From a virus (lineage: Duplodnaviria > Caudoviricetes), in the IMG/VR virus record IMGVR_UViG_3300037424_001846, positions 1 to 43,596 of that record: a DNA stretch of 43,596 nucleotides; one strand, written 5' to 3'. This document shows, in pieces, positions 1 to 34,730 of this stretch. Made by a program: the position numbers and the translations under genes. Each line of letters opens with the position of its first letter. The stretch's first letter is position 1. The notes beneath the pieces are model-generated. The model was given only the letters and a program-made list of their open reading frames with translations, was not told where the DNA came from and ran no database searches.

Positions 1-23
1 CCCGTCCATGGGTGCGCATCCAT

Positions 24-212
24 CTAGCGGAGGTAGCCTTCGTCGGGGGGGAGCGGGAGAGTGTTCCCGGTTAGGATGGTACGGATGGTGTCGGCAAGGT
101 GGAGGTAGCGGGCGGGGAGAATCCCGTCGTCCGTGGCGTGCGCCCAAAATGCGGCTTCGCGTTCGGCCGCCCAAATGGCGAGGCGAAGAAGGAGGGGGGC
201 CATGGGAGTCAT
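24..212 (-). CDS. Hypothetical protein (62 aa)
   Basis: ATG 3 nt after the upstream stop, GGAGG/GGGG-rich leader; fits the tight minus-strand gene chain. Confidence 0.55.
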   Translation of the reverse strand: MTPMAPLLLRLAIWAAEREAAFWAHATDDGILPARYLHLADTIRTILTGNTLPLPPDEGYLR

Positions 213-215
213 GGG

Positions 216-446
216 CTAGTGCCCTCCTTTCCCTTGGCGTTGGAGAACAGCGCGAAAACAATCGGATGCGAAGGCGGACCAATCGGCACGTTCGGCAATG
301 GGCGAAAAGCGCCGGGCGGCACGGTCAAGGGCATGGAGCGCGAGGGCGGAAAGGGCAAGGCCACGGATCGTCCCGTCGGAAATGGCATTGCGAAGGATTG
401 GGAGATCGGAGATCGTGAGCGTTGACGTTTCAAGGGTGGAGTACAT
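216..446 (-). CDS. Hypothetical protein (76 aa, MYSTLETS...)
   Basis: TAAGGAG Shine-Dalgarno 7 nt before ATG at 446; start trimmed from the 216..509 ORF. Confidence 0.65.
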   Translation of the reverse strand: MYSTLETSTLTISDLPILRNAISDGTIRGLALSALALHALDRAARRFSPIAERADWSAFASDCFRAVLQRQGKGGH

Positions 447-457
447 GAGAAGGCTCC

Positions 458-556
458 TTATCGGGAAAGGGTAAAGGCGAAGAGACGGAGTAGGGAATAG
501 ATGAGACAAAACAGCCCGATCGCTTTCAAAAGGGCATAGGTATGAGGGTAGCGCAT
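458..556 (-). CDS. Small hydrophobic peptide (32 aa, one TM)
   Basis: GGAGGAG SD before ATG at 556; MRYPHTYALLKAIGLFCLIYSLLRLFAFTLSR. Confidence 0.5.
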   Translation of the reverse strand: MRYPHTYALLKAIGLFCLIYSLLRLFAFTLSR

Positions 557-557
557 G

Positions 558-1364
558 TTAGGACTCCTCCTTTGGGGTGATGTATTGGGCGAGTACGGCG
601 TTCGCCTTGGCGATGGCACCTTCTTCGCTCCAATCGTCGCCATATTTGGGGGTTTGGAAAACTAGGGTTGTGGCGTCGGGGGCCGGGGGCAGGGGGATGA
701 CGTTGCCGTATGTGCCGCCTACGCTAAAATTGGAACGGACGGCGGGTGATTGAATTTCCATAATGGCGAAAATGAGGCGACGGAGGTAGGCGGGGTGCGC
801 AATGGCAAAGGTAAGGGTATCGAGGTTCAAGGGGTTTTCGGATACCTTTAGGGGGAGATGAATAAAGAGTTTCCCGTTGTCGTGACCGGATAGGGCGGTG
901 ACAAGTTCAACGTCGCATCGGATGCCGCGCGATTCTAGGGCGTCTATGACGGCTGCAATGGTGACGCCCCGGTTGATTGCTTTGTCGGTTGTGAATGAGC
1001 CGGAATAGACGGCGGAGACGATGATTTTGACAAAGCGTATGGGGCGCGTGTCGGGGGTGAAGTTTACCATGCACTCGGGGGTGCCTTGGACGTACTGGCC
1101 GACGTCTACATAGGCGCCGGTCACGTCGTGGAAGGTGGCGGAATGGGTTTCGATGAGGGGGGGCAAGGTGAATTGGGACAAAAGGCGCTTGGCGTGGGCG
1201 GCACCTTCGGGCCATCCACGGCGGGCGAATTTTAGAACGTCGTCGAAAGTGGCGGAAGTGAAAAATCCCTCTTCGGTTTCGCGGGAGCGTTCCCCGGGGG
1301 CGGTGGTAGCAGCAAGGGCCGCCATGGCGGCTAGGTTTTCAAGGTCAATGCGAAGGCTAATCAT
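558..1364 (-). CDS. vWA-like partner of the AAA+ ATPase (DUF7192-type)
   Basis: Start MISLRIDL overlaps the ATPase 3' end; motifs HDVTGAYVDVGQYVQGTPECM, NRGVTIAAVIDALESRG, AHPAYLRRLIF; the N-terminal part of the 558..1739 ORF is a shadow of the ATPase gene. Confidence 0.7.
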   Translation of the reverse strand: MISLRIDLENLAAMAALAATTAPGERSRETEEGFFTSATFDDVLKFARRGWPEGAAHAKRLLSQFTLPPLIETHSATFHDVTGAYVDVGQYVQGTPECMVNFTPDTRPIRFVKIIVSAVYSGSFTTDKAINRGVTIAAVIDALESRGIRCDVELVTALSGHDNGKLFIHLPLKVSENPLNLDTLTFAIAHPAYLRRLIFAIMEIQSPAVRSNFSVGGTYGNVIPLPPAPDATTLVFQTPKYGDDWSEEGAIAKANAVLAQYITPKEES

Positions 1365-2484
1365 CGGAATCTCTTGAAAGGCGGGCGATGGTGTCGGAAT
1401 CGAGCCCTTTCCATAGGACCAGGGGGGCGACGGTGGATTCTGGAAGGCCAGAGCCGAGGAGATCGGCCCCGACGATCGAGGCGCGGGGGGAGACAATGTG
1501 GCGGATTGAAAGGGCCGTGGCGCGCTGGCGGGCGTAACGGACCTTGAGAAGCCATCGGGAGATGATGGTGGAGTCCGTGCCGCCCGAGGCGGTGAATGTG
1601 GCGCGGGCGATATCGGTTTCAAGGGCTTCGTCATAGTCCCAGTGGAGCATGACGAAGCGGTCAAGGGTAGCAGCGTCCAATTGGAGGGCGCCGACGTACT
1701 CGCGTGAGGCGCCCGTGCCGTAGGTATTGGCGGCTGCAACGGTGATAAAGTCGGGGTGACGGGGGATCATGGCGTCGGGGAAGGCGCATGTACCGTTTTC
1801 GATTGCTTGGTTTAGGGCCGTAAGGACGCCGGGGTTGCCACGGTCAATTTCGTCAATGAGGAATACGCCCCCCTGCTCGAAACGGCGGCGGAATTCCGTC
1901 GGGATGTAGTTACCGTGGGCGTCCATGTAGCCGAAAAGGGCGGATTGGGTCGTTTGGGGGCCGACGGAGATGGAGCCGAAGGCGAGGGAAAGGGCGCGGG
2001 CGGCGGCATGGGCGGCAGAAGTTTTGCCGGAACCAGCGGGACCGGCTAGCCAAATGTTACGGCGGCGGGCGATGATGGAGACCAATAGGGGGAATTGGGC
2101 GTGCTGGCGACCCGCGTTGAATGGGGGGATGGTGGAGCCGCGCACGGAGACGACAAGGGCGCGTGTGGGGGAATTGGCGATGACGTCTTGGGCGATTTCC
2201 CGCATTTTGGATTCATCGGAGATCGCGGGAAGGAGGGTGTATATGTGGGCTGCGATGATGGCAGCAAGGTCAGCGCTGGGCGCGGGTGCTGGAGTGGTGA
2301 CGGGAACGTCGGCCCGAGGATCGGGGCGCTTGCGTTGGGCGGGGCATGTGGGGGAATGGAATTGACCTATGGGGCCGGTACGGCCGGGGTCGTCCGCGTT
2401 GACGTAGTAGCGGCGGCCCGTCTGTTGGGACGTGCGGAGGGTGACGGGGGCGCCGCAACGGGCGCAATGGATGATGGGGGCCAC
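1357..2484 (-). CDS. MoxR/CbbQ/CobS-like AAA+ ATPase with N-terminal putative Zn-binding segment
   Basis: Walker A GPAGSGKT, Walker B FLIDEID, AANT sensor, LDAATLDRF; N-terminal CARCG...FHSPTC; GGAGG SD before GTG. Confidence 0.88.
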   Translation of the reverse strand: MAPIIHCARCGAPVTLRTSQQTGRRYYVNADDPGRTGPIGQFHSPTCPAQRKRPDPRADVPVTTPAPAPSADLAAIIAAHIYTLLPAISDESKMREIAQDVIANSPTRALVVSVRGSTIPPFNAGRQHAQFPLLVSIIARRRNIWLAGPAGSGKTSAAHAAARALSLAFGSISVGPQTTQSALFGYMDAHGNYIPTEFRRRFEQGGVFLIDEIDRGNPGVLTALNQAIENGTCAFPDAMIPRHPDFITVAAANTYGTGASREYVGALQLDAATLDRFVMLHWDYDEALETDIARATFTASGGTDSTIISRWLLKVRYARQRATALSIRHIVSPRASIVGADLLGSGLPESTVAPLVLWKGLDSDTIARLSRDSDD

Positions 2485-2544
2485 GGGGAAATCCTCCGAA
2501 AATGGGGCCGTCCGTGGCGGGTTTGGTTTGGTGATGGTGAATGG

Positions 2545-2651
2545 GGTGCAAGGGTCGTGCCGGGCGTAAGGTCAATCAATACAAGGGGGCGAGAGTGTGG
2601 GCTCGTGCAACGTGCGAGGTGCGCAATGGGAAGGTGCAATGAGGGTGCAAT
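2545..2651 (+). repeat. Cluster of short (G)GTGCAA direct repeats
   Basis: GGTGCAA 2545, GTGCAA 2605, GGTGCGCAAT 2618, GGTGCAAT 2633 and 2644, in the non-coding divergent region. Confidence 0.5.
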
Positions 2652-2690
2652 AGGGGTTTTGATAAGCGACTATCGCCGTAACTCGTTGAG

Positions 2691-2718
2691 ATGTCGCATA
2701 ATAGCCATTATGTCAACA
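2691..2718 (+). promoter_or_regulatory. dif: dif-like XerC/XerD recombination site
   Basis: ATGTCGCATAA-TAGCCA-TTATGTCAACA versus E. coli dif GGTGCGCATAA-TGTATA-TTATGTTAAAT: 11-6-11 layout, 7/11 XerC arm, 8/11 XerD arm, inner CATAA/TTATG palindrome; intergenic. Confidence 0.8.
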
Positions 2719-2834
2719 TCATTGCATGAGGAGATCGCGCTATGTGTATGTATCGCATGGGGTTGGCTGTATTGCGGCCGAGAGGCGGCACCCCTCCCCC
2801 ACGCGCGGGATCGAATCGCATTCCTAGACCACAC

Positions 2835-2863
2835 TTGCTCCATTGCATAGTTTGACTTATGAT
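2835..2863 (+). promoter_or_regulatory. Putative sigma70-type promoter for the packaging/structural arm
   Basis: TTGCTC-17 nt-TATGAT upstream of the putative terS. Confidence 0.5.
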
Positions 2864-2973
2864 TGAGGAAGAGTGGCTAGGCGTGGATCTCGCCTCAATG
2901 GCCCATGTCTATTTTCACTTCGAAATCAATCGTGCCATGGAGCAACGTCTTTTCGGAAGGGATTCCAGTACCA

Positions 2974-3600
2974 ATGTCGGGCAGAGTCTCCCAGCGCTCC
3001 CAGATCCAGGACTTTCTCCTGGCCTCCGCGCACGCCGGCGCCCATCCCGTCCTCCGCGAAGTAGCCCTCAAGTTCGCGGTCTCCCTGATGACGGTCTCTA
3101 AGGCCCGGCGCGAACTCATTGCCGCAGGGCTCCTTCCCGAGCCCCCTCGCTCTGCCCGAGCCGGTCGGCCCCGCATCCGCCGCGGCAATGCCCCCATCGT
3201 GGCCGACCCCCGCGCCGGCCGTCCGGCCTCCCCCACAAATCCCACATCTCCTCCCGAGCCGGGGCGGCATCTAATGGGGGAAGATCTCCCAGTACGCGCC
3301 CTTCCCGAGGGGATGGTGGGTGCCATCCTCGCCGCGGCGACTGGGCCGGCCCTCTCGCTCGACGAGCAGCGGGAGCGCCTGTCCTGGCTGGCCCAAAACG
3401 CGGCGCGAGAGGAGGTCCAAATCAGCGCCCTTTCGACCCTCGCCCGGCTCGATGCCATGGCGGGGATTCGATCTGGCCCATCGTCCGGCGCCGTCCTCAC
3501 GGAGGAGGACGCCGTCGATCACCTCTCTCTTCTGATGAGGGCAAATGGACGCTCCCGAGTTGATCGAGCACTTCTTCTCGCCTTCCCGCCTAGCCAGTGA
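2974..3600 (+). CDS. Putative terminase small subunit with N-terminal GntR-like winged HTH
   Basis: First + gene ahead of terL; LREVALKFAVSLMTVSKARRELIAAGLL resembles a GntR wHTH; LSLDEQRERLSWLAQ...QISALSTLARL resembles TerS oligomerisation helices; start chosen at ATG 2974. Confidence 0.55.
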   Translation: MSGRVSQRSQIQDFLLASAHAGAHPVLREVALKFAVSLMTVSKARRELIAAGLLPEPPRSARAGRPRIRRGNAPIVADPRAGRPASPTNPTSPPEPGRHLMGEDLPVRALPEGMVGAILAAATGPALSLDEQRERLSWLAQNAAREEVQISALSTLARLDAMAGIRSGPSSGAVLTEEDAVDHLSLLMRANGRSRVDRALLLAFPPSQ

Positions 3601-3905
3601 AGCCTTCCTTGTCCTCCGCCTTTGGCAAGGCCAAGCCGCCCTCCCCACCATCTACGGGTTCTCCCTCCGCTCCCCCATCGCCCCCGACGTCAATGTCACC
3701 TTCATCCGCGGGAACCCCGAAGCCCCCCGCTGGGGCAGTAGTGCAACGTTCTGGGCCTCCGAATGGGTCGAATTTCGATGACGTTCCGTCCCTTCTTGCC
3801 GCCCTTCGAGCCCGCCTCGGGCGGATGGAGTTGACGGAACGGCTTCTGAATGACAGAATTGCGGAACTGGAGGACATCCTACGTGAATACGGCCACCCCA
3901 TTTAA
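3597..3905 (+). CDS. Hypothetical protein (Pro/Ser-rich N-terminus, coiled-coil C-terminus)
   Basis: GTGA overlap with the upstream stop; heptad pattern LRARLGRMELTERLLNDRIAELEDIL. Confidence 0.6.
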   Translation: MKPSLSSAFGKAKPPSPPSTGSPSAPPSPPTSMSPSSAGTPKPPAGAVVQRSGPPNGSNFDDVPSLLAALRARLGRMELTERLLNDRIAELEDILREYGHPI

Positions 3906-4197
3906 CGGCGTCTTGCGGAGCGAAACACCCCACGAAGTCCTCTTCACGGAGGCATCCTTCAGTGCCTCTATCGAAAAGATCTACAATACGATGGGGATCG
4001 CCCATCAACGTGAACGGGTCCTCTATGTGAACCATCCAGAGGACGTCCCCGCTTTCGGGTGGGGGGTCTCCTACGATGTCCCCAGGTGGCGGATGATGTA
4101 CCGCCGCATTGAAGAAGAAGAGGTGTTCGCCAAGTTTCGGATTGCCTCCCGGTTCAAGGATGAACCATGGAAAGCCCCGACGATCTCCCCACCCTAG
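3883..4197 (+). CDS. Hypothetical protein
   Basis: GGAGG SD before GTG 3883; globular-looking sequence filling the gap to terL. Confidence 0.6.
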   Translation: MNTATPFNGVLRSETPHEVLFTEASFSASIEKIYNTMGIAHQRERVLYVNHPEDVPAFGWGVSYDVPRWRMMYRRIEEEEVFAKFRIASRFKDEPWKAPTISPP

Positions 4198-5960
4198 GTG
4201 TTCCGCTCGCTGATCCAATCGGCTGGTCCGTAGATGCTGAGGTCGCTCTCTGGAGCGACATCTGCCGGAAGAACTTTTGGTGGTTTCTCCAGGTGGCGTG
4301 GGGCGCCCATTGGTATATGCGGGCGAACGCCCACGACCGCTGGGTAACTGAGCGTCTCCACAAACCCATCTGCGATTGGCTCCAGACCCACGTAGAGGAC
4401 TGGGAGCGCCGGCGCCTTTCTGGGGAAAAGCGCCGAACAAAACTTGCCCTGGTCATCCCCCGCAGTTACGGCAAGACGGTCATTGCGACGAAGGCCCTTC
4501 CCCTCTGGGTGCAACTCCGAAACCCCGACCTCGCCACCTACATCGGCTCCGAGACGGTCGAGAAGGCGATCGACTTTCTTCGACCCGTGAAGTCCGTCCT
4601 CGATGGGTCGGACCCCTTCGCTCGCTTCACCCACCTCTATGGGAATTGGTTTAGCCCCGAGCGGCTCTGGACGAACCGCACAGTTGTCCATGCTGTTCGG
4701 ACGGCGGTTGGGCGAAGTGAACCGTCGTTCGATACATGGGGGGTGGAGCAGGGGATCACCGGAGCGCACCCTGACTGGGGGATCTTCGACGATCCTATTA
4801 GCGAGGAGAAGTTGAAGGAGAGTGGGGCGTGGATCGACGCCGTGAACAATGCGATGGCGGCGCTTCGGCCGGCTTTCCGGACGGACAGTTTCTTCATGCT
4901 GGTCTGTACCAGGTATCGGGACAATGATGCGGTTGGGAAGGCGCTCTCGGAGGAGGGCGTGCGGAGTTGGACAGGGATGCAGGTGCCGGAAGAGAAGTTC
5001 CAGCCGCGGGACGATGGGGAGTGGGACGTCTACTTCCTTCAGGCCCTCGACACGGTGGGAGTCTCGACGTTCCCCGAGATGTGGCCGACGGAGGAACTCC
5101 GGCGCTACGAGAAGTCGAAGCCGATCTTCTTCGCCGCCCAGATGATGAACGACCCTGCCTCGGGGGAGCACATGGCGCTCACCATGGAGCAGGTCGATCA
5201 GTTGTGGATAGAGCCGAAAGACCTCCCAAGTTACATGCAATACACCCTCCACATGGACACCGCCTTCAAACTCCCCACCCGAGCCGGGCGAGGGGATGAA
5301 AATGTGATAGAGGTGTGGGGGCATGACCCAAGGGGGAATGGGGATGTTTACTACATAGAGGGGTTTGGGAGTAACACCTGGAGGATCGAGGAGTTCACGG
5401 ATGAGTTGCTTCGGTTGTGTCAACGCTACAAGCGGTTTGGGAAGCGGATTCGAATGATGACGGATGAGAGGGAGATGGGGGGAAAGGCGAATACGTGGGA
5501 GATGTGGCTTAGGTCAAGTTTTGCTGGGGCAGGGATCACGATGCCGCCTCTAAAGGTGCTGAATCGGAGTCGGGGTAAGAAAGAGGTGAGGATCCGGGAG
5601 GCCGCAGGGTTCTGGGTTGATGGGCATGTCCGGATTGTCCGGGGGGCACCAGGAGCCCATAAACTTGTGAGTCAGATGGTGCGGTTGGGAGTGGCGGCGC
5701 ATGATGATTGGGCTGATGCGGCGGCTGATGTGTTCGCTCCGGAGGTGTATCGCCCTATGCTGAATCCGGCTCTCTCCGGAGGGCAAGATGATGGGGCGTA
5801 TCCAATCCAGCCCGGTGACGACATCCTCGGCCGCCGTTTGTCTGATGAGGGGGCGAGGAAACTATATGATGTGGCGCATGGGGAGTGGGTGGATAAGTTC
5901 TTTGATGAGAAGGAGGAGGAGATGAGCCGATGGGCTGCGGCGATCAAAGATGCCCATTGA
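4167..5960 (+). CDS. terL: Terminase large subunit
   Basis: Walker A IPRSYGKT, ITGAHPDWGIFDDP Walker B region, AQMMNDP, RNase H-like nuclease LHMDTA...HDDWADA. Confidence 0.93.
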   Translation: MESPDDLPTLGVPLADPIGWSVDAEVALWSDICRKNFWWFLQVAWGAHWYMRANAHDRWVTERLHKPICDWLQTHVEDWERRRLSGEKRRTKLALVIPRSYGKTVIATKALPLWVQLRNPDLATYIGSETVEKAIDFLRPVKSVLDGSDPFARFTHLYGNWFSPERLWTNRTVVHAVRTAVGRSEPSFDTWGVEQGITGAHPDWGIFDDPISEEKLKESGAWIDAVNNAMAALRPAFRTDSFFMLVCTRYRDNDAVGKALSEEGVRSWTGMQVPEEKFQPRDDGEWDVYFLQALDTVGVSTFPEMWPTEELRRYEKSKPIFFAAQMMNDPASGEHMALTMEQVDQLWIEPKDLPSYMQYTLHMDTAFKLPTRAGRGDENVIEVWGHDPRGNGDVYYIEGFGSNTWRIEEFTDELLRLCQRYKRFGKRIRMMTDEREMGGKANTWEMWLRSSFAGAGITMPPLKVLNRSRGKKEVRIREAAGFWVDGHVRIVRGAPGAHKLVSQMVRLGVAAHDDWADAAADVFAPEVYRPMLNPALSGGQDDGAYPIQPGDDILGRRLSDEGARKLYDVAHGEWVDKFFDEKEEEMSRWAAAIKDAH

Positions 5961-6849
5961 CTTCTCTCCTCTCGGGCGCATTATCTATCGTGGTCCCGGT
6001 TGGGAGGTTGAGCGCCACTGTAAGGCGGCTTCGAAAGCAAGGGAGCCGGCGCTCCCCCCAGCCGGGGATGAAAGGCCAAGGATGGCGCAACTCGATGATG
6101 AGTATCAGAAGGTAATTGCAGATCTTGTGGAGGAGGCCCGACTCGTCGGTGCTACCTCCCCCGAGACGGAGGTGTCTCCAAGTACGCCCCCCGCGTCGGA
6201 GCCCTCCGTCTCACTCCCACCACGCCGTTCCATCCTCTTAACTCCTGCTGGGAACATTCGAGCCCCCTTTGAATGGGGGCTTCATATTGTCTACTTTGAT
6301 TTGGAGATCAGGAGGGAGTTGGGGGAGATTGGTGGGTGGGATGGGGCCATTCGAGATGGGGGGATCAGTTGTCTCTGTTTGTGGGATTCGGGGACGGAGA
6401 AGCCGTATTTCTATGATGAGGGGAGCCTGGATACGGCGATGAACCATCTGGAGGGGGCAGATGTGGTGGTGTCGTTCAATGGAAAGGCGTTCGATGTGCC
6501 CCTGATTACGAGCCATGCGAAGAGAGCGATGGTGCTGAAGGAGCATTTCGACCTTTTTGAATTGGTGAAGATGGCGAAAACGAAGGTTGGAGAGGGATGG
6601 GGTGGGAATGGGCTTGGAAAGTTGTGTGAGATGACGTTTGGACAGGGAAAGACGGGGGTTGGAAGTGATGCACCGGGGATGGTGAGGGATGGAAAGTGGA
6701 TGGAGTTGGTGGGATATTGTCTGAATGACGTCTACCTGACGCGGGATCTTTGTACGTTTGTGAGAAGGAATGGGTTTTTGATGGACAAGGACGGGGTGGA
6801 GTTGAGGTTGGATGTTCCGGAGTGGTTTGCGATTAAGAGGATAGATTGA
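5950..6849 (+). CDS. DEDD/RNase H-like exonuclease (YprB/RNase_H_2-type) with low-complexity N-terminus
   Basis: ExoI VYFDLEI, ExoII SFNGKAFD, HFDL, ExoIII YCLNDV. Confidence 0.85.
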   Translation: MPIDFSPLGRIIYRGPGWEVERHCKAASKAREPALPPAGDERPRMAQLDDEYQKVIADLVEEARLVGATSPETEVSPSTPPASEPSVSLPPRRSILLTPAGNIRAPFEWGLHIVYFDLEIRRELGEIGGWDGAIRDGGISCLCLWDSGTEKPYFYDEGSLDTAMNHLEGADVVVSFNGKAFDVPLITSHAKRAMVLKEHFDLFELVKMAKTKVGEGWGGNGLGKLCEMTFGQGKTGVGSDAPGMVRDGKWMELVGYCLNDVYLTRDLCTFVRRNGFLMDKDGVELRLDVPEWFAIKRID

Positions 6850-6850
6850 G

Positions 6851-8746
6851 ATGGTGATGATGACGGAAGTGAAAAGGGAGCCAAATCTCGATCTTCAACT
6901 GGCGAACCTCGTGATGGCGAGGAAGGAGCACTCTGAGAACTACTTTCAGGGGATTCGTAGACAACTTCCGCAACTTTATGATCTTTATCGGGGGGTGATG
7001 ACGGGGCGGTTCTCTCCGCATAAGAATAATATCCATATTCCCTTTATCTTCAGTGTGATTCAGAGCGATGTGGCGCGGAAAACGCAGACTTCGTTCGGAA
7101 CGTGGCCGATTGTGAGTTTTCTTGGCTATGGTCCGAACGATGCGACGATCGCTCGGAAGAGAGAGGCGTTGATTAGCGCGCAAATGAAGGATATGGGGGC
7201 GTTTCGGAAGGGATATGAGGTGTTTCTTGGGGCAGATCTCTACGGAACGAGTGTGGTGAGGTATGGGTGGGACCATAGAGAGCAAGAAATGGAGGTTCCG
7301 ACCTTCGATACGTTGCCATTGAGTGGTCAGATGGTTAGAAGGGCACTAAAACAGCGGATTGTGACGTTTGATGGGCCAAATTTTGTGGTGAAGGACCTTC
7401 TAGACTGCTATCCACAGCCTGGATTCAGGACAATCGAGGATATGGGGTGGTTTACGGAGTCGGATTACCTCGATTTCGACGATATCAGGGCGCTCTCCGA
7501 GATGGAGATGAGTGGGGGGTACTTCTTCGATAAGTGGGAAGTCAATCGGATGGGGAGAGAGGGGACATCGAGCCCTCAGATCGATACGGCGGACTATAAG
7601 GCGTGGCGAGTGCAGTCGAATACGATGATTGAGGAGGAAGCCCGTCAAAGGGAGCGATATGCCCGGCCGGTGAAACTTGTGACGATGTGGGGAAGGGTTC
7701 CGAGCGAACTTGCACCGGATGGGATTGTGGATCGGGTGATAACTGTGGCGAATGGGAAGTATGTGCTGAGGAATCGACCGATTCCCTTCTGGAATGGGAA
7801 GAAGCCCTTCCTTGCGTTCAGCCCGGTGGCGGATCCGCACTACTTCTTTGCGCCGGGGAAGGCGGAGATCCTAGCGAAACTCCAGGTTTTGACGAATCGC
7901 TTCACGAATCAGCAACTCGATGCGTTGGAGATCTTCATCGATCCGGTGTTCTTCGTGAACAAGGATAGCGGGCTGGATACGCGGAATCTCTTCATTCGAC
8001 CGGGGAAGTTCATCAATGTGGAAGGGAATCCGAATGAGATGGTGTACCCCCTTCAGCCAAATATGCAGGGGATTCAGTTTGGTGGAGCGATGACGGAACA
8101 GGCGTGGCGATGGATGCAGCAGGGGAGCGGGATTGTTGAGGATACGGTGCAGGGGGGGCAGGGGAGCCGGCAGACGGCGCGGGAGTTCCTGGGACGGAGT
8201 GAGGCCGTAGCGACGAGGTTGCTCCAGGAGAGTCGGATGTTTGAAGAGGAGTTCCTGGAACCTCTTGCAGATGCGTTCGTGGACCTGAATCGGCAGTTCT
8301 TGGAGGCGGGAAGAGAAGTGCTGATGTTGGGGGAGAACGCGAAGTTGGATCCAGTGACAGGGATGGTGGTGCCGGAGACGACCCGGGAGCAGGTGTATGG
8401 GTGGGATCTTGTGCCGAACTATGAGGCGAGGGCAGTTGGTTCGACGAGTCGGCTGGCACGGGCGAACCGCCAGCAGACGCTCATCTTCCTCATCCAGGCG
8501 ATGGGGCAGAACCCTGTGGCGGCGGCGGCTACGAATTGGATTAACTTCTTCCGCAATGTGCTGAGGGAGTTCGAGATCCCTAACATCAATGAGATCCTGA
8601 ATTCGCCAGAGGAGATGCAGCGGATGATGGAACTTCAGAAGGGTGGGGCGACGCAGCCGGGAGGTGTGCCGGGTGAAGCGCAGGCCCCACCGGGGGGTGG
8701 GAGTGTGAATCCGCTGATGGGGGCTGGGACGGAGACGATCCAGTGA
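6851..8746 (+). CDS. Portal protein (podoviral)
   Basis: 631 aa between terminase and scaffold; IHIPFIFSVIQ, GKKPFLAF..PHYFFAPG, TAREF motifs; Q/P/G-rich tail; start may be a few codons later. Confidence 0.88.
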   Translation: MVMMTEVKREPNLDLQLANLVMARKEHSENYFQGIRRQLPQLYDLYRGVMTGRFSPHKNNIHIPFIFSVIQSDVARKTQTSFGTWPIVSFLGYGPNDATIARKREALISAQMKDMGAFRKGYEVFLGADLYGTSVVRYGWDHREQEMEVPTFDTLPLSGQMVRRALKQRIVTFDGPNFVVKDLLDCYPQPGFRTIEDMGWFTESDYLDFDDIRALSEMEMSGGYFFDKWEVNRMGREGTSSPQIDTADYKAWRVQSNTMIEEEARQRERYARPVKLVTMWGRVPSELAPDGIVDRVITVANGKYVLRNRPIPFWNGKKPFLAFSPVADPHYFFAPGKAEILAKLQVLTNRFTNQQLDALEIFIDPVFFVNKDSGLDTRNLFIRPGKFINVEGNPNEMVYPLQPNMQGIQFGGAMTEQAWRWMQQGSGIVEDTVQGGQGSRQTAREFLGRSEAVATRLLQESRMFEEEFLEPLADAFVDLNRQFLEAGREVLMLGENAKLDPVTGMVVPETTREQVYGWDLVPNYEARAVGSTSRLARANRQQTLIFLIQAMGQNPVAAAATNWINFFRNVLREFEIPNINEILNSPEEMQRMMELQKGGATQPGGVPGEAQAPPGGGSVNPLMGAGTETIQ

Positions 8747-10133: not shown

Positions 10134-11159
10134 ATGGCTGCTCCTGGAAATTTTGGAACCTACGGGTTTGGGTTCCTGGCGGGAACTGGCGCGAACCGTG
10201 AGGATCTGCTGGATCTCATCACGAACGTCGATCCCTGGGATACCCCGTGGGTGACGCAGGCTCCCAAAGTGCGGGCGAGCCATGTGGTGCATGAGTGGTT
10301 GGTGGATACGCTTGCGACGACGTCTACGGCGAGCGGGGTTGTGGTGGCGATCGAAGGCGATGATTGGGCCTACAACACGGCGACGACCCGTCCTACCCGT
10401 GTGACGAATAACACCATGATCTTCAGGAAGGACATCTCGGTCAGTGAGACCCAAAGGGCGGTGAACCCCGCGGGCTTCAAGGACGCCTACTCGTATGAGA
10501 TTGCGAAGGCGACGAAGGAACTGGCGAGGAATATCGAGGTGTGGTTGTTCCACGGGAATGCGACCGTTACGGGGACGGCGATCTCGGGGGCGAGCAATGC
10601 GGTTAGAAGGATGCTCGGGTTCCAGGGCTTCATTGCGACGACGGCGACTGGTGCTGGTCAGACGGTGTCGAGCCTCGGGACGGCGACGAACAACTCGGCC
10701 CCCCTCACTCAGGGGAACTTCAATGATGCGCTGGAGCGCTGCTTCCTGAACGGGGGGAATCCCGAGCAGGTGTATGTGAGTAGTGCTATCAAGCGTCAGA
10801 TCAGCGGGTTCAACCTGACGGGGCAGAACCGGAACATTGGGGCGATCGAGAAGAAACTCGTCAATGCCATCGACATCTATGTGAGCGATGTGGGTGTGGT
10901 GGAGGTCGTGCTGGATCGTTGGGTGCCGCAGGCAACGAATGCGGGGACGGCGACGGCGAGTGCGACGGATACGAGTGGGAATATGTTCTTCCTTGAGAGG
11001 GCGAAGAACCGCCTCGCGTGGCTCCGTCCGATGCAGCACACGCTGGTCGGAAAGAGGGGCGATAGCGTGGCCGGGACGATTCTCGGGGAGTTGACGTTGG
11101 AGGTGCTGAACGAGAAGGCAGCGTTCAGGATCAACCGCGTCAACAACGCGACCGCGTAG
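10134..11159 (+). CDS. Major capsid protein (SU10/DUF5309-type)
   Basis: NREDLLDLITNVDPWDTP, HEWLVDTL, EGDD, RVTNNTMIFRKDISVSET, KELARNIE, GELTLEVLNEKA; GGAGG SD. Confidence 0.92.
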   Translation: MAAPGNFGTYGFGFLAGTGANREDLLDLITNVDPWDTPWVTQAPKVRASHVVHEWLVDTLATTSTASGVVVAIEGDDWAYNTATTRPTRVTNNTMIFRKDISVSETQRAVNPAGFKDAYSYEIAKATKELARNIEVWLFHGNATVTGTAISGASNAVRRMLGFQGFIATTATGAGQTVSSLGTATNNSAPLTQGNFNDALERCFLNGGNPEQVYVSSAIKRQISGFNLTGQNRNIGAIEKKLVNAIDIYVSDVGVVEVVLDRWVPQATNAGTATASATDTSGNMFFLERAKNRLAWLRPMQHTLVGKRGDSVAGTILGELTLEVLNEKAAFRINRVNNATA

Positions 11160-12207: not shown

Positions 12208-12542
12208 GCAGGACACATGGACTGTCGTTTGCTGATGAACGGTTAATCACCCAGATCACCAACACGGATGATCTTGCCAGACGGGTTCCTCGCCTCATTA
12301 CCTTTTGGGACGGGGTTGGGGAAATGCGCGAGATCATCCGCGATCAGGGGGCACGGAGGCACCCGCACTCTGGGTCAACTGGGTGGTGGGCAAACGGGAA
12401 GATGAAGTATGCAGGGACAGTTCCAGTGAGTATTAAGGCTGCGATTGAGATGGTGGATCCTGGATTCTTCAGGAGTGTGGAGAAAGTGGAAAGGTTCTTT
12501 GCGATGCACCCAGAGTATCGGATAACGGAGATCCAAAAGTGA
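12204..12542 (+). CDS. Hypothetical protein
   Basis: ATGA coupling; MKYAGTVPVSI...FFAMHPEYRI resembles small post-capsid podoviral proteins. Confidence 0.65.
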   Translation: MSRTHGLSFADERLITQITNTDDLARRVPRLITFWDGVGEMREIIRDQGARRHPHSGSTGWWANGKMKYAGTVPVSIKAAIEMVDPGFFRSVEKVERFFAMHPEYRITEIQK

Positions 12543-13771
12543 TTAGGCTATACACCAAACATCTTGGGGAGTCGAGTGGGTGCATGTATTACCGGGTGCA
12601 GGTTCCGGTGAAGGGGATGAACAAGTTGGGGAATGAGTGTTTCATCGACAACCACAAGACCCCAGTGGATCAGACGATCGCTGCGACGTTCTCCAGTGAC
12701 ATCATCCTGGATTACGCCTTGAGTGGGGCTATGGTGGAGTCGATTCTAAATGCGCTGAGGGGGATGCGTCAGGGAAAGAGTGACGATGGGGCAGAAGATC
12801 TCTATCCGCCTAGTTTCGTGTTTGATCTGGATGATCGGATTGATTGTGTGCATCCTTTTAATCCGGCTTTTGTTCATCTTGGGGTCAGGTCGTATGATGG
12901 GACCGAGTTGAAGAGTGGAGATCGGCTTGTCACGACGTTTCCAGATGGGGAAGAGGTGGTTGTTTGGGAGGATGGAAAGACTCAGTGTGATGGACAGACG
13001 TTTGATGTTGATAAGAATTGGAGGAAAGTGAAGACGGTGTTCTCCATTGCGCAGAGGGCGGATGGAGTCACTGTGCCGTCCTTGGGGCTGGCAAAGTTCT
13101 ACCGGGAAGAGATGGGGTGTGAGGATGTGTATGTGTTTCCGAACTCCGTTGTTCCCGAGGATTATCCGACTGTGCGGTTGGCAGAGAGAACGGATCCAGA
13201 AGAGGTAAGGGTGTTGTGGCAAGGTGGGGCCAGCCATATGGTGGACTGGTTCCCGTTGAAAGAGGCCATCCTGGAAGTCGCCAAGAGATACCCAAAGATG
13301 AAACTTGTGGTATGGGGGACGAACTTCCCGTGGATCTTCGAGGGGTTTCCGCAGGCACAGTTGGAACTACATGACTGGGTTCCATATGATGCTTACAAGC
13401 CACTGCGGGTGATGATGGACTGTGATATCAATCTGTGCCCGCTTGCAGATAATCTCTTCAATCAGGGGAAGAGTGCGATCAAGTGGTATGAGTCAGTGAT
13501 GCCGTTCGTGCCGGAAGCGACGTTGGCGAGCAATGTGGCTCCCTACAATGAAGAGATTGAGGACGGGGTTACGGGGGTTCTCTATAAGGGGAACCAGGAG
13601 TTTGTAGCGAAGTTGGGGAGATTGATCGAGTCGAAAGAGTTGCGGACCAGGCTCGGGCTTCAAGCACGCGCCTGGGTGATGGCGCATCGTCACTATGATG
13701 TGACGACTCCGGGGTTGAATGAGTTTTATGAACACCTCCGGGCAAGGAAGCGGCTTGCGCTTACGGCATAG
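12539..13771 (+). CDS. Glycosyltransferase, GT-B fold (GT4-like)
   Basis: SGCMYYRVQVP, FDLDD, ADGVTVPS, VFPNSV, WQGGASH..DW, DINLCPL..NLFNQGKSAIKWYE, ASNVAPY. Confidence 0.88.
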   Translation: MIRLYTKHLGESSGCMYYRVQVPVKGMNKLGNECFIDNHKTPVDQTIAATFSSDIILDYALSGAMVESILNALRGMRQGKSDDGAEDLYPPSFVFDLDDRIDCVHPFNPAFVHLGVRSYDGTELKSGDRLVTTFPDGEEVVVWEDGKTQCDGQTFDVDKNWRKVKTVFSIAQRADGVTVPSLGLAKFYREEMGCEDVYVFPNSVVPEDYPTVRLAERTDPEEVRVLWQGGASHMVDWFPLKEAILEVAKRYPKMKLVVWGTNFPWIFEGFPQAQLELHDWVPYDAYKPLRVMMDCDINLCPLADNLFNQGKSAIKWYESVMPFVPEATLASNVAPYNEEIEDGVTGVLYKGNQEFVAKLGRLIESKELRTRLGLQARAWVMAHRHYDVTTPGLNEFYEHLRARKRLALTA

Positions 13772-28543: not shown

Positions 28544-29007
28544 TTTGCTCTCCTGTCTAGGCGGGAGGTGATGCGACTGGAGAAGCGATTGGGGACACGC
28601 CACTTCTCCTTGAGGAAGACGTGGTGGTAGATGCGGTGGTCGAATTGCCAGAGGTATTCGATGAGGCGGAGCCAGTGGGCAAGGACGAGGCGAAGGTTGA
28701 AGGGGCGGGCTTGGGGGTGAATGGAGAGGGCAATGGCGATGCAGAGGCGTGGGTCAGAGAGGGGGAGGAGTTCCCCTTTGGCGAGGCGTTGGGCGCGGGC
28801 GCTGAAGAAGGCGATGTAGTGGGAACGGAGGCCGGTCCAGTTCTTGAGGGAGAGGGAGGTCTTTGGGCGAGAGGGACCAGTCAGTTTCTTGACGAGGTTG
28901 AACTTCAAGAGGCCGCGGAGAACGTAGTGGTGGAGGCAGTAGAAACTGTTCTCCCAGCGTGGGTTAGGACAGCGGAACTTCCCGCAGCGTTCTTTTAGGT
29001 TGTCCAT
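28540..29007 (-). CDS. Hypothetical protein with N-terminal C-x4-C...CLHH Zn motif
   Basis: ATGA coupling to the M15 gene; start MDNLKERC overlaps the polA end. Confidence 0.6.
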   Translation of the reverse strand: MDNLKERCGKFRCPNPRWENSFYCLHHYVLRGLLKFNLVKKLTGPSRPKTSLSLKNWTGLRSHYIAFFSARAQRLAKGELLPLSDPRLCIAIALSIHPQARPFNLRLVLAHWLRLIEYLWQFDHRIYHHVFLKEKWRVPNRFSSRITSRLDRRAK

Positions 29008-31304
29008 GGGGTCATCTCGCCCCAATTGGGACCGGATTTGGCGGCGACGGGGACGCGGAAACCGGGGGCGATCTGGGGGAACTCGGTCTGCATGGCGTCG
29101 ATGATCCCCCGGGGCTTTGCCCCGGGAGGGAGTTCACAGAGGAAACTGTCGTGGATCTGGGCAAGGAGGTTACCGCCACATTGACGGATGGCGGAATCGA
29201 CGGGGCGGAGGCCGGCCCACATGATGTCGGCTGCGGTGGACTGGGGGAGGTAGTCGTACATCTCTGGGATCTCGGCACCTTCGACGTCTCCGGAAGGGGA
29301 AATGTAGCAACTGTGGAACCAGCGGCGACGACCGAAGACGTTGCGGATGAAACGGTAGGAAGCACCTTGGCGGATCACTTGGGAACGCCAGGCAGCGAGG
29401 TCGGGGTAGAGGGAGAAGAAGCGGGTCTGAAGGGCTCGGGCGGAGGGGATGGAGGTCGGAAAGCCGGCGGTGGTGAGGAGTTGGGAAAGGCGGAAGGGGC
29501 CAGCACCGTAAAGGGTGCCATAGGTGGTGTTCTTAGCGCGGATACGGTCACAGCCAAGGGCGACCATGGTGACGGCATGGACGTCGCCTTCGAGGGCGTG
29601 GAGGAGGGCTTTGTCGTTGGACAAGGCCCCCGCGATCCGGAGTTCGATTTGGTTGTAGTCGAATTCCCACAATTGCCAATCAGGGTGGCGGGGGATGAAA
29701 AGACGGCGGGCAATGGGGGGTTGGTTCTGGATGTTGGGATGGGTGGAGGCGAGACGGCCTGTGGCGGCGGCACCGCGGGCGGCTTCCTTGTCGAAAGGGA
29801 GAAAAGATGGGTGGACGAATCCGTTCTCCATGGGGAACATCGTATAGGTAGAGAGGAGTTTGGACTTTTCACGGTAGTCGAGAAGCAACTGGAGGTAGGT
29901 CTGATGAGGATGGTTGGAAGGGAGATTCCTGGAAAGGGAGCGGAGAGATGTCTCGTCTACGGAGCCAGAGCGGCGGCCATAGAGGAGTTGTTGAAGTTGT
30001 GGGTTGGAGTTGGGGGATGTCTCAGGAGCAAGAGAACGGAGTTTCGATTGCAGAAAAGACGTCGTGTGGAAGAGTTCGTTACGCCACATGGAAAGGGCTG
30101 GGTGATCCACCTTGATCCCGCGTTCGGTCATTTCGATAAGGATGTGAAGAGAGGGCATAAGAGTTTTGTGGAAGAGATGATCGAGCCCATACCGCTCCAG
30201 GAGATGAGATTCGACCTCAGCGATCGCGTGCGTAATGGAGACATCGCTGGCGTTATAGAGAGATGGGTTCGTGTCAGAGAGATGTTTCCAGCGGTGGAGG
30301 TCGAGATAAAGCGGAGCAATGCGACCGAGACCCTTATAGAAATCAGGTTGAAGAAGGTGTGAGGCGAGCATGGTGTCGAAGAGGGGCTTGTCGTGGGGGA
30401 TGATGATGCCGGCGCGTCGGAGACGAGAAATGTCGAAGGCGAGATTGTGGCCGATTAGGCAGGAGGAGGCGTTGATGAGGAGTTGGGTGTGATGAGCGGA
30501 ACTCCGGGACCAAGGGGCGGACCAGACTGGGCCTCCAAAGGAGACACCGATGCGTTCTATGGCGGGAGAATGTCCGATTGTCTCGATATCGAGGCAGAGC
30601 GGCGTAGTGGTTGGATCCGGCGGAACATCGGTTGAAAGGACCGTGTGCGGGGACCAAACATGATGGCTGTTTCGATTCCCCAATTCCGAGAGTCGCTTAA
30701 GTCGGAGAATGTCGGCCTTGAGAATAGGTAGCGTCCGGTATTTCGATGCGGGGAGGGACGCGGGATCGTAGACCACCATAGATCCTGAAAGGTGTCGGGG
30801 AAGCGCAGGGAGTTGGCGTACCCGTACCATTCGACGTTTTGGATCCCCTCTTCGATAAATGAAAGAGCCGTCATCGCGTTTTCTCGATGTACGATATTCT
30901 CCAACAACCTGCTCAACTAGAACCTCCGCTGGTAGGAACTCGTCGGGGCGGATGATGTAGCCACGGAGGTCATCGATGTGACCACGTATTCCAGTAATGG
31001 CTCTGAACGGAGGATTCCCAAGGAAGCATATTGCTCGGATGAAAGGGGATATAGCAGCGTGAGAAAAAGTGTCTGGAGTACAGAATTCGAACTTGGATGC
31101 GGGGAGAGAGCATTCTGAAGCAATTCGAAGAAATAGAGATAGGGACGATTGAAGTGGGGAAGGTTCATGGACAGCCAGAATAGTTGGGAGTTCCTCCGCA
31201 TCCAGTCCATCATCTAGGACCGGAAGAGATTCTTCACCCTGGAGAGGAAGCGGGGGAGATCCGTCTTCGAGAGGGGAGATGGGATCTCGGGGGGAGTCTC
31301 CCAT
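28995..31304 (-). CDS. polA: Family A DNA polymerase with 3'-5' exonuclease and degenerate N-terminal UDG-like domain
   Basis: Exo CLDIET, GHNLAFD, YNASD; TGRLASTHPNIQNQP; motif A DYNQIELRI, motif B RAKNTTYGTLYG, motif C QIHDS; start uncertain. Confidence 0.93.
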   Translation of the reverse strand: MGDSPRDPISPLEDGSPPLPLQGEESLPVLDDGLDAEELPTILAVHEPSPLQSSLSLFLRIASECSLPASKFEFCTPDTFSHAAISPFIRAICFLGNPPFRAITGIRGHIDDLRGYIIRPDEFLPAEVLVEQVVGEYRTSRKRDDGSFIYRRGDPKRRMVRVRQLPALPRHLSGSMVVYDPASLPASKYRTLPILKADILRLKRLSELGNRNSHHVWSPHTVLSTDVPPDPTTTPLCLDIETIGHSPAIERIGVSFGGPVWSAPWSRSSAHHTQLLINASSCLIGHNLAFDISRLRRAGIIIPHDKPLFDTMLASHLLQPDFYKGLGRIAPLYLDLHRWKHLSDTNPSLYNASDVSITHAIAEVESHLLERYGLDHLFHKTLMPSLHILIEMTERGIKVDHPALSMWRNELFHTTSFLQSKLRSLAPETSPNSNPQLQQLLYGRRSGSVDETSLRSLSRNLPSNHPHQTYLQLLLDYREKSKLLSTYTMFPMENGFVHPSFLPFDKEAARGAAATGRLASTHPNIQNQPPIARRLFIPRHPDWQLWEFDYNQIELRIAGALSNDKALLHALEGDVHAVTMVALGCDRIRAKNTTYGTLYGAGPFRLSQLLTTAGFPTSIPSARALQTRFFSLYPDLAAWRSQVIRQGASYRFIRNVFGRRRWFHSCYISPSGDVEGAEIPEMYDYLPQSTAADIMWAGLRPVDSAIRQCGGNLLAQIHDSFLCELPPGAKPRGIIDAMQTEFPQIAPGFRVPVAAKSGPNWGEMTPWTT

Positions 31305-32214: not shown

Positions 32215-32793
32215 TCAGATCGGTTCGAAAATGGTGATGATTTCGGGGAAGAAGCGCTTCTTTCCGTCTCGGCCCTCCGAGGGACCTTGCTTCACTTCGA
32301 AACGGATGGACTTTCCGACAAGCGGCGACGGAGTTGTAGGAGGCGGGAAAGCGTCATCTGGCGGAAAACAGGTGGCGAGAAGGCTTCCGGAATAGCCCCC
32401 ATCCTGGGAGTCAGGAAGAATCCCAACGCCGCGAAGAAGCATGGTGAGGCGGTTGGTAGACATGAAGGACATCTTGGCGAGGTTATCGGGGGAGCCGGAG
32501 GCCATGGCGACAGGGCAAATGCGGAGCCCGGTTTTGATGGGGAAGCCGATGTTGTCACCGGAGCCCTCCGCGGAGCAGGTGGTTTCGAAGTTCAAGACGC
32601 GGATCTTCAACTGGGAGTTGTTGTCGGTGTAGATGGAGGAGGAGACGGAGGTGATGGAGCCGGCTTCCTCCCAGAACTTCAACTCTGGGTTCTTGTTGGA
32701 GATACGGGCATTCGTGGGGACGACCATCTTGTACTCGGCCGCGGCTTCCGCGGCCTTGATGACGTCACCAGAGATCGAGAGGAAATCATCCAT
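32215..32793 (-). CDS. Putative ssDNA-binding protein (DUF669-like OB fold)
   Basis: Directly downstream of the Sak4-like ATPase; RLTMLLRGVG and LVGKSIRFEVKQ...DGKKRFFPEI pattern. Confidence 0.5.
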   Translation of the reverse strand: MDDFLSISGDVIKAAEAAAEYKMVVPTNARISNKNPELKFWEEAGSITSVSSSIYTDNNSQLKIRVLNFETTCSAEGSGDNIGFPIKTGLRICPVAMASGSPDNLAKMSFMSTNRLTMLLRGVGILPDSQDGGYSGSLLATCFPPDDAFPPPTTPSPLVGKSIRFEVKQGPSEGRDGKKRFFPEIITIFEPI

Positions 32794-33652
32794 GAGTTGC
32801 CTCCGTGAGGATAGGGGTGGTGACTGAGGGGATGTAGAACTTCTCGTGAATGGTGTTCCAGAAGTTGATTGGGTCGGGGTCCAACTCGATCATGGGGGCC
32901 GGGTTGTTGAGATGGGGGGAGCGGATCCCCGCGATCCAGATGGAATTGGTTTCAGTCCAGGCGACAATTCGGGCCTTCTTGTCGAAGCCAGAGGTGACGG
33001 ACTGGCGGGTGAGGCGGACGGTCGAAGGGAAGCGGCCGGCGATCGAGCCGATCGTTTTCGAGCCGACCGTGAGGGGGCCGCCGATCAGGGTCTTCGCTCC
33101 GGCTTCCATAGCCTCGCGGTAGCCCTCCCAGCAAAGGACGATGATGTGGAGGGGCTGCTGAAACAAAAAGGTGATGAGGCGATCTACGGCACCTTGGGCG
33201 GCACCGTAATCCCCTTGCATTGCAATGGTTTGGTGGTCTTTTGCGCCCTTGACCCCCATGGTGATGTGGGAACCTTGGCTGAAGGAGCCCTGATCGCTGA
33301 TCTGAGCGAGGATCTGCTGGGAGGTGAAGGATAGGGTGTCCCAGACGAGGGTGCGGACTTTGGAGTAGCGACGGACCCAATCCTCTCGGGCGAAGAGGAA
33401 GGCGTCGCCGCGGACATCGTGAAGGCCGGTCTTTGGATCGGGGGCGCTGATGATCGTGTGGATGCGGGAGCGATAATGGGGGAGGACACTGTCCAACCGT
33501 TCCGCGCCTGGATCCGCAGCGAGATACGCGATCTCACCGTAGGGATCCTCGGGAAGCGAGAGGGCAAGGCGGGTCTTCCCCACTTTGGGGGCGCTGTAGA
33601 TCAGCCAGCGTTCGAGGTCGGTTCGGGATGCAACTGGTTCTATGAGGGGCAC
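32786..33652 (-). CDS. AAA_24 / Sak4-like ssDNA-annealing ATPase
   Basis: WLIYSAPKVGKT, TLVWDTLS, QGDYG, HIIVLCWE, GGPLTVG. Confidence 0.82.
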   Translation of the reverse strand: MPLIEPVASRTDLERWLIYSAPKVGKTRLALSLPEDPYGEIAYLAADPGAERLDSVLPHYRSRIHTIISAPDPKTGLHDVRGDAFLFAREDWVRRYSKVRTLVWDTLSFTSQQILAQISDQGSFSQGSHITMGVKGAKDHQTIAMQGDYGAAQGAVDRLITFLFQQPLHIIVLCWEGYREAMEAGAKTLIGGPLTVGSKTIGSIAGRFPSTVRLTRQSVTSGFDKKARIVAWTETNSIWIAGIRSPHLNNPAPMIELDPDPINFWNTIHEKFYIPSVTTPILTEATHG

Positions 33653-33808: not shown

Positions 33809-34730
33809 TGCAACAATAGGCATTCCGAGCGCAACGTTCTGAATCGGAGTCTGGAAGTGGAGGTACGCATCGGCCGGATGCCTTCTGTAGGATCCCCATC
33901 GCCTGAACAAGCGGGACTCCGACCTCGGCGAGACTTCGTCCTGTTGCGAAACAACTAGCGTGTCGGCCTGGCTCGTGAACTCCATGGGTGATGAACCTCC
34001 TGGCTGTGGCGGTGAGAAAACGCCAGACGGGGTAAAGATCTACTAAGTTGTTGGGTCTACTGGCTGTTCGAGGTCGCTCTCGAACTCGGAATGATGGATG
34101 GCTGGTCCAGGTGCTCCACGCGATACGCTTTCCGAGGGCGATGACCCGGGCGATCCGCCCGGATTTGGTGTTGATGGAGCCGGGGAGTCGGACGAGGCGC
34201 GCCAGATCGGCGCAGGAGGTATCAAGACGACAACCGGCGAACGTTCCGAGGTCACGCTGGGTGTGTAGGAGGAGATGACCCACTCCATCCCGCCATCGGG
34301 CAGCAACGTCTTCTGAAGTAACTGGTATTGGGTCAACAAGAAGCCATGCTTGTGCGCCTCTTCCCGTGTCAACGTAACACGGAGCGAAGTCCCTTCCAAG
34401 GTGATTTTCGACAAGTTGAACGGCCCTCTTTGCGGCGGCTAGCGGATCGCACGTCCCCACATCGACGGGGTCCAAATCGAGGACGATTGCGGTGATATGT
34501 GTGACGTCCTTACTTGAGATGCGAAGGCCATGGGAGCGATTCGAAAAATTCAGGTTGAAGTAGAGGTTGAACCCTCTGGGGGTTAGGGTTTTGGAGATGT
34601 GGGGGAAACTGTCCGATCGGCTGGCGCAACCCCCGATATGTTCGAAGCCTCCGGAAGAGAGGGGGCGCCGTCCCCACCAACGGAGGAAGGGCGCCCCGTC
34701 CGAAACGACCCGCCAGACATCCCTGTCCAT
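33798..34730 (-). CDS. RepB'-type (AEP superfamily) primase with C-terminal PriCT-like domain
   Basis: NLYFNLN, IVLDLD, VDTGRGAQAW, DLARLVRLPGSINTK; C-terminal PGRHASCF...PPLPDSD; GGAGG SD. Confidence 0.82.
   Translation of the reverse strand: MDRDVWRVVSDGAPFLRWWGRRPLSSGGFEHIGGCASRSDSFPHISKTLTPRGFNLYFNLNFSNRSHGLRISSKDVTHITAIVLDLDPVDVGTCDPLAAAKRAVQLVENHLGRDFAPCYVDTGRGAQAWLLVDPIPVTSEDVAARWRDGVGHLLLHTQRDLGTFAGCRLDTSCADLARLVRLPGSINTKSGRIARVIALGKRIAWSTWTSHPSFRVRERPRTASRPNNLVDLYPVWRFLTATARRFITHGVHEPGRHASCFATGRSLAEVGVPLVQAMGILQKASGRCVPPLPDSDSERCARNAYCCNGA

Follow-up and report, generated by a model that had tools for sequence, protein, structure and literature searches.

A XerC/XerD-type core site beside the terminase genes of an uncultured podophage-type genome and its possible recombination with a second copy of itself

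The window analysed here, i.e. the whole 43,596-bp record G000, which is an uncultured short-tailed, podophage-type genome, contains at positions 2691–2718 a 28-bp sequence with the anatomy of a XerC/XerD core site, at which binding and recombination by the host XerCD proteins are predicted. We regard it as somewhat probable that this site recombines through host XerCD with its own second copy, and not with the host dif, thereby joining the genome ends or resolving multimers.

Genome organization and the 28-bp site

CheckV rated the record as 100% complete, but 'linear'. A profile scan of 64 of the 229 listed ORFs assigned terL, an SU10-type portal, a capsid, and an adaptor to the plus strand and PolA, a Sak4-like annealase, and an exonuclease to the minus strand. 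The virion and PolA modules are full, and no match to a plasmid Rep was obtained in the profile scans of G000. The ORF at 2905–3600 had no match in Pfam, PHROG, or NCBIfam; it is a probable small terminase by its position, with HTH-like viral look-alikes (at 0.86–0.87) serving as a lead only. The features referred to below are as follows.

1357–2484, minus strand: MoxR/CobS-like AAA ATPase, the first long gene of the leftward arm (phrog_249, PF07728)
2691–2718, plus strand: putative XerC/XerD core site of the dif/xrs type with an 11-6-11 layout (pattern, weight matrix, and retention in six relatives)
2691–2701, plus strand: predicted XerC arm, ATGTCGCATAA (conservation of 0.91 over seven clade sites; an identical arm occurs in bacterial sites)
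2702–2707, plus strand: central region (spacer), TAGCCA (XerC-side triplet variable, 0.48; XerD-side triplet 0.95, CCA in six of seven)
2708–2718, plus strand: predicted XerD arm, TTATGTCAACA (conservation of 0.94; canonical, not degenerate)
2795–2860, plus strand: non-coding block, a candidate genome-end or packaging signal (conserved in both site-bearing and site-lacking relatives)
2905–3600, plus strand: probable small terminase
4167–5960, plus strand: terminase large subunit, terL (phrog_38, E-value of 1.9e-52)
6851–8746, plus strand: SU10-type portal (PF23899)
10134–11159, plus strand: SU10-type major capsid protein (PF17236)
28995–31304, minus strand: family A DNA polymerase, i.e. the phage's own replication machinery (profile matches)
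32786–33652, minus strand: Sak4-like annealase (profile matches)

The site reads ATGTCGCATAA-TAGCCA-TTATGTCAACA and combines the ATAA-N6-TTAT layout of XerCD core sites with a TTATGTYAA XerD arm. An earlier sequence-only reading of this DNA had described it as an 11-6-11 site matching the Escherichia coli dif at 7/11 and 8/11 arm positions, and direct comparison with the dif of MG1655 (PMC3025954 supplement) gave the same values. Its non-coding position by the packaging operon was likewise borne out: the site lies in the gap between the leftward AAA ATPase gene (1357–2484) and the rightward operon (from 2905 on), and forms a partial palindrome in this divergent promoter region. The pattern ATAA-N6-TTATGT[TC]AA occurs once in the window, as against 0–0.005 occurrences expected per genome (200 Markov shuffles at each of three orders). 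With a loose weight matrix, the site scores 33 and the next best place in the window 6.6. Consistent with the statement of the same reading that no recombinase or partition gene is recognizable, PF00589 (tyrosine recombinase), PF00239 (serine resolvase), PF13614 (ParA), and PF09397 (FtsK-gamma) had no match in G000.

The same arms are found in bacteria. The pattern GTCGCATAA-N6-TTATGTCAA was detected in ~490 stretches of GTDB genomes and 49 of IMG/VR, and the 120 GTDB stretches that were fetched occur mostly once per genome and in many phyla. Acidobacteriota, Nitrospirota, Eisenbacteria, Myxococcota, Betaproteobacteria, and others have these arms. The proposal that the site could serve as a handle for host prediction did not hold up well, because such a spread over many phyla makes it a weak one; prediction of the host from the arms was set aside on this ground, and terL matches among isolates share only 22–25% identity.

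Several other features of the genome were recorded. The AAA ATPase and its DUF7192 partner occupy 558–2484, and the full pair is shared with G001 only. A glycosyltransferase gene (12539–13771) lies inside the virion operon and is present in all six relatives compared, and a gene for a Methyltransf_24 protein (34583–35476) in five of them. G-over-C skew is strong on the plus strand across both gene arms and falls to approximately zero or below only in the ~2 kb to the right of the Xer site; the relatives differ in this respect. At 42327–42419, within a small early gene, a 138-bp contig of run X1 (depth of 7.7 vs 12) has 79 different bases in place of 91 bases of the window, which may represent a strain variant or a chance join.

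Conservation and loss among relatives

In total, 107 homologues of terL were identified, on contigs of up to 54,985 bp. Searches of viral and metagenome sequences gave 79 and 73 loci, respectively, with some contigs in common. A strict scan of 1.41 Mb of non-duplicate loci of these relatives yielded nine matches to the site, one of them weak, compared with 0.2 expected. Six distinct phages (G001, G030, G004, G005, G009, and G007, the last across its contig ends), with terL at 62–77% identity, carry one site each, 0.75–2.7 kb upstream of terL. The position in the gap upstream of terL is thus conserved in these six terL relatives, which is what the sequence-only reading had proposed to look for. 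The orientation is that of the window in five relatives and inverted in G009, and the complete relatives G001, G004, and G007 each contain exactly one site.

Over the seven clade sites, mean column conservation is 91–94% in the arms and about 50% in the flanks (0.47 and 0.50). The arms are thus more conserved than their surroundings and the setting is intergenic, as in XerCD core sites under selection. The two halves of the spacer differ: the XerD-side triplet is CCA in six sites and GCA in one (conservation of 0.95), and the XerC-side triplet, at 0.48, is no more conserved than the flanks.

Five relatives of the same clade, i.e. G002 (91% complete), G006 (100%), G003, G008, and L175, lack the site although the upstream region is present; several other clade relatives are too short for presence to be judged. 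Three times in the terL tree, site-lacking genomes form sister lineages nested among site-bearing ones, a pattern indicative of repeated loss. No convincing site was found in 19 more distant records (36–48%), loose matches in two of them (G013 and G020) having been dropped as no XerC arm could be read. The first 9 kb of phiEco32, which has the same gene order as the window at its left end, contains no Xer site either. Being absent from these five close relatives, the 19 distant records, and that part of phiEco32, the site is dispensable. No tyrosine recombinase (PF00589) was found in the window or in 29 of 29 family records, with 12 further loci lying outside this search, and no PF00239 in 15 of 15; the description of the phage as integrase-free is therefore supported.

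The argument for a cryptic temperate state fared less well. It had rested on a 'double-XRE' regulator (42698–43435), in which only one HTH stretch passes in Pfam, and on a 'lipoprotein' (38033–39244), which is a SPFH/Band 7 protein with an N-terminal hydrophobic stretch; neither gene has a tblastn match in six relatives, three of which bear the site.

Downstream of the site, the non-coding block at 2795–2860 consists of a C-run, ACGCGCGG at 2801, a CATTCC/ACGTTC core, and TTTGACT, and in six genomes its core follows the XerD arm by 73–143 bp. The 8-mer ACGCGCGG is present in a single copy in the window. In phiEco32, whose terminal repeat is 193 bp long, it is located within this repeat, 9 bp from the inner edge, a post hoc correspondence that we use as a lead only. 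Contig breaks were rejected as a guide to genome ends: in the spacer-blind sample described below, they show no side bias around the site (11 vs 11 within 300 bp). L177 and L178 both end 103 bp beyond the XerD arm and may derive from one sample. L178 also carries a lone inverted XerD-type arm ~25 bp beyond the full site, about 60–130 bp from its left end. In L157/L161, a single 74-kb viral contig, the same Xer site occurs near both ends inside a repeat of ~110 bp, and a C-run follows this repeat at the left end.

Xer sites and their spacers in other phages

A short blastn search of isolates with a clade site matched the Ralstonia phage RpT1 twice. RpT1 and RpY2 are T7-like (Autographiviridae), have no annotated integrase, and carry the site in both copies of their end repeats (208 and 236 bp); in phiITL-1, it lies downstream of terL in a region matching that of the other two. 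The spacers of RpT1, RpY2, and phiITL-1 are TAACCA, GGTCCA, and TCACCA, respectively, and that of the R. solanacearum GMI1000 dif is TTTATC. As in the window clade, the CCA half is fixed and the other half free; RpT1 was found through its spacer, and RpY2 and phiITL-1 through homology of the flanks. In rV5, both E. coli arms are exact and the spacer is TAGGTA, as against TGTATA in the E. coli dif, such that RpT1 and rV5 both mismatch the dif of their host species on the XerC side. The isolates PSTCR3 and EKP1 were not taken as additional support for CCA, because they had been found with a TAACCA query and their spacers are not independent of it. The Elizabethkingia phage EKP1 carries two same-strand Xer sites with different spacers (L556:56–83 and L556:3986–4013), which bracket the terL, portal, and head-morphogenesis genes in an arrangement resembling a dif module around packaging genes. 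Since EKP1 has annotated integrases as well as sites before terL and after the head genes, the site is no stand-in for an integrase. A tyrosine recombinase is encoded by 6 of 50 larger viral contigs that carry such sites and were picked by hand (3 of the 19 near-complete ones).

A spacer-blind scan with CGSATAA-N6-TTATGTTAAAT returned ~720 viral and ~8,300 GTDB stretches, from which 120 and 121, respectively, were sampled. Flanks were available for 80 viral loci, 7 of which were duplicates and were removed; for each of the other 73, the two longest ORFs were compared with Pfam (138 ORFs), 14 more ORFs were scanned at a looser cut-off, and the loci were classed by hand. The site lies 5' of terL or the portal gene in 33 of the 73 loci, 27 of them within 800 bp, with several of the terL calls being weak ATPase matches or made from a position before the portal gene; it lies 3' of head genes in one further locus, and 25 loci were left unclassed. 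The terminase- and portal-side loci form 11 clusters at 35–50% identity (the largest with 15 loci) and thus do not represent 33 independent events. A host-type spacer (TGTATA, TATATA, or TCTATA) was found in only 1 of these 33 loci, compared with 13 of 14 loci with Zot, secretin, Rep, or microvirus-capsid genes (inovirus/microvirus loci; p of 5e-9 on the first 29 terminase-side loci).

CCA spacers account for 10 of 109 viral and 4 of 121 bacterial sites (p of 0.095) and for 2 of 51 in the viral GTCGCATAA-N6-TTATGTCAA set. Being not significant, CCA was rejected as a general viral signature; with mild enrichment in one set and two occurrences in the other, it marks some lineages and not all. 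Spacers ending in CA occur in 33 of 109 viral sites vs 4 of 121 in the proteobacterial sample, yet they are common in Actinobacteria (78, PMC3025954 supplement). IHF-consensus boxes lie no more than 120 bp from 10 of the 29 terminase-side Xer sites (L653, L657, L658, L664, L674, L684, L686, L708, L710, and L723) vs 0 of 14 IMEX-type sites; none was found within 200 bp of the site in the window or the clade, and the boxes were left out of the argument.

Possible roles of the site and their relation to known Xer systems

Among the other explanations considered, integration at the chromosomal dif is the one closest to what had been proposed from the sequence: the site would be the attP of an IMEX element that is integrated XerD first, only the CCA half needing to match, with the junction resolved by replication. 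Like the IMEX elements (CTXphi, VGJphi, TLCphi, gokushoviruses, tailless vibriophages, and Legionella LME-1), the phage has no integrase of its own and carries a dif-like site. Gokushoviruses (PMC7062461) and tailless vibriophages (PMC9966536) are reportedly integrators that borrow XerCD. A tailed precedent is LME-1, which has T7-like morphology, integrates at a dif site, and has an att identical to the host site, according to the parts of PMC9765430 and PMC12407071 consulted. CCA-ending chromosomal sites with similar arms also exist: in each of three Thermoanaerobaculia chromosomes (L373, L403, and L411), the only dif-type site has the psi-like spacer TGTCCA, of a type that the 2011 dif table does not contain, and an Eisenbacteria contig combines a GAACCA spacer with the XerC arm of the window beside a tRNA-synthetase gene. 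However, a search of 185,579 GTDB species genomes for related prophages retrieved no terL relative (326 candidates from two peptide patterns, with which remote relatives could be missed, as would any whose host is absent from the sequenced genomes), and the longest of the 107 homologue contigs measures 54,985 bp. A GTDB scan with the clade consensus, which leaves out the last base of the window site and the first bases of the G005 site, identified 17 chromosomal sites, none with a clade spacer or beside a clade gene. Although the arms of the window are nearly or fully identical to those of chromosomal dif sites in several phyla (Kono et al. 2011, PMC3025954), its spacer type is absent from that table, CCATTATG being found at 0 of its 709 TTATG occurrences, and is rare in the GTDB samples, and there is no conserved KOPS convergence around the clade sites. 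In IMEX sites, moreover, at least the XerC side of the spacer agrees with that of the host, and these sites are found integrated, whereas in the clade the XerC side varies and no integrated copy was found. As far as PMC4246890 was consulted, integration of CTXphi and VGJphi depends on matching bases adjoining the XerC arm, and in TLCphi both the XerC arm and the spacer are near-identical and the XerD arm is degenerate, so that the known classes need identity of the XerC side or of the whole spacer; the site of the window fits none of these three types. It also lacks the CTX-class pair of inverted dif-like sites ~90 bp apart (ssDNA hairpin), being a single site with a next score of 6.6, and the degenerate XerD arm that in the TLC class goes with an activator (XafT): its own XerD arm is canonical, and no FtsK-gamma domain was found. 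Sister phages lack both the site and any integrase. In run X1, which may be the source of the window, a single contig runs without a break over 1–8000, and none of the loose ends listed, a list that leaves out 8, lies at the site, although contigs cannot demonstrate absence of phage–host junctions; the listed pieces of run X2 do not cover the site. Taken together, integration at dif appears rather improbable.

A dimer-resolution site of a circular carrier state or plasmid-like episome, monomerized by XerCD with or without FtsK, is unlikely too. It would agree with the finding that dimers of large plasmids are resolved at 28-bp sites that have no accessory sequences (the part of 10.1101/2024.04.05.588136 seen), and all four minus-strand GGGNAGGG words lie 101–1804 bp to the right of the site and point at it; this KOPS convergence, however, is reversed or absent in relatives and was rejected as a conserved feature. 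Matches to ParA or plasmid Rep are missing, the XRE gene is not common to the relatives, and such a site would have no reason to adjoin terminase genes in many lineages or to lie in T7-type end repeats. Slightly less probable still is binding without recombination, in which the site would act as a roadblock or shield near the genome end (against exonucleases or SMC-type sensors) or would titrate XerCD and so block host division. PMC9226527, in the part available to us, cites XerD binding at dif-like loci to unload SMC complexes, and free drift in one spacer half is compatible with any model that has no fixed partner, but conservation of the XerC arm is as tight as that of the XerD arm, and the XerD-side triplet between the cut sites is conserved as well, for which binding alone gives no reason. 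A chance look-alike or an operator of a phage regulator, for which the partial palindrome in a divergent promoter region could be cited, is very improbable given the expected frequencies (0–0.005 per genome, and nine matches vs 0.2 expected in relatives); the arms are asymmetric in the manner of bacterial dif, and none of the regulator genes among the window ORFs is common to the site-bearing genomes.

Recombination of the site with its own second copy corresponds to the second option of the sequence-only reading, i.e. the resolution or recircularization of replicating genomes, and is favoured by conservation, position, and the isolate parallels. The location of the ends of this genome, the activity of XerCD on the site, and any benefit to the phage are what we infer here. 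The packaged linear genome would begin ~100 bp downstream of the site, which would then fall in the terminal repeat and thus occur once at each end. Once the DNA has been injected, or while it replicates, these two copies would be joined by host XerCD into a circle or head-to-tail concatemers, and the enzyme could also cut multimers back to monomers. Because both partners would be copies of one site, the spacer would not need to match that of the host, and its mismatch to the host dif would protect against integration by accident. With its CCA half fixed, the site would be open to cutting by XerD in the absence of FtsK, which would free the reaction from the timing of cell division. It would be a helpful accessory that the clade has lost on three or more occasions. 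Against this reading stand the dispensability of the site, the CCA-ending chromosomal sites mentioned above, the limited occurrence of CCA among viral sites, and the even distribution of contig ends around the site. The Sak4-like annealase of the phage could also join repeats by homology, and an incoming linear genome lacks the supercoiling and accessory proteins that psi needs (10.64898/2026.02.23.706985, seen in part). The position of the site may also partly reflect where non-coding space is available.

The closest known relatives of the site in structure are psi of pSC101 and the Acinetobacter sites xrs38/xrs66, which share the 28-bp core, a canonical XerD arm, and a CCA-ending central region, and at which host XerCD is used on the element's own DNA, as predicted for the window. 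The psi spacer, GATCCA, is identical to TAGCCA at four of six positions, including the whole XerD-side triplet. According to the sections of PMC11705084 consulted, XerD cuts xrs38/xrs66 (T/CCGCCA) without the FtsK gamma domain, the authors suggest as a hypothesis that the central region explains this FtsK-free cutting, and no recombination took place between Acinetobacter sites whose central regions are not closely related. The window differs from these systems in that its site is borne by a tailed phage with its own polymerase and without plasmid functions, beside terminase genes; it also differs from psi and cer in containing no plasmid replicon (no ParA or Rep match). Sites of the psi/cer kind have ~200 bp of accessory sequence bound by PepA and ArcA/ArgR; the flanks of the clade sites are not conserved. 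A second parallel is loxP–Cre of P1, where a tyrosine-recombinase site near the packaging start acts between its own copies, as would be the case here. The loxP site of P1 serves in cyclizing terminally redundant DNA. P1 encodes Cre, whereas the phage of the window has no recombinase and would use host XerCD. Dimer resolution is the role given to loxP–Cre in the part of 10.1101/2024.04.05.588136 consulted.

Our partial coverage of the literature on dif and Xer sites in tailed or lytic phages, which does not prove absence, turned up no report of a site at the genome ends, and PMC12733307, PMC8540360, and 10.1101/633727 contain nothing on tailed-phage dif sites. To this literature, the window adds a new phage clade, a pattern of loss, split conservation of the spacer, a link to psi/xrs38, the Ralstonia isolates, and the difference from IMEX loci in a spacer-blind sample. 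The natural series of spacers bears on the suggestion, made in PMC11705084 as far as seen, that a CCA-type central region frees XerD from FtsK. As a tentative generalization, which we consider slightly less likely than not, many unrelated tailed phages, lytic ones included, may independently have placed a host-XerCD site with a private spacer at the packaging start or in the terminal repeat, circularizing or concatenating their genomes in a host-powered Cre–lox step that would be FtsK-free in the CCA class, CCA next to XerD being a simple code for escape from cell-cycle control. That a phage contig carries a dif-like site does not prove that the phage is lysogenic. Mobile elements are known to use host XerCD for integration (IMEX) and for plasmid dimer resolution; if the reading proposed here is true, tailed phages would employ it in a third way, on the ends of their own genomes, which would be relevant to the question of how DNA with short terminal repeats is circularized or concatenated in phages.
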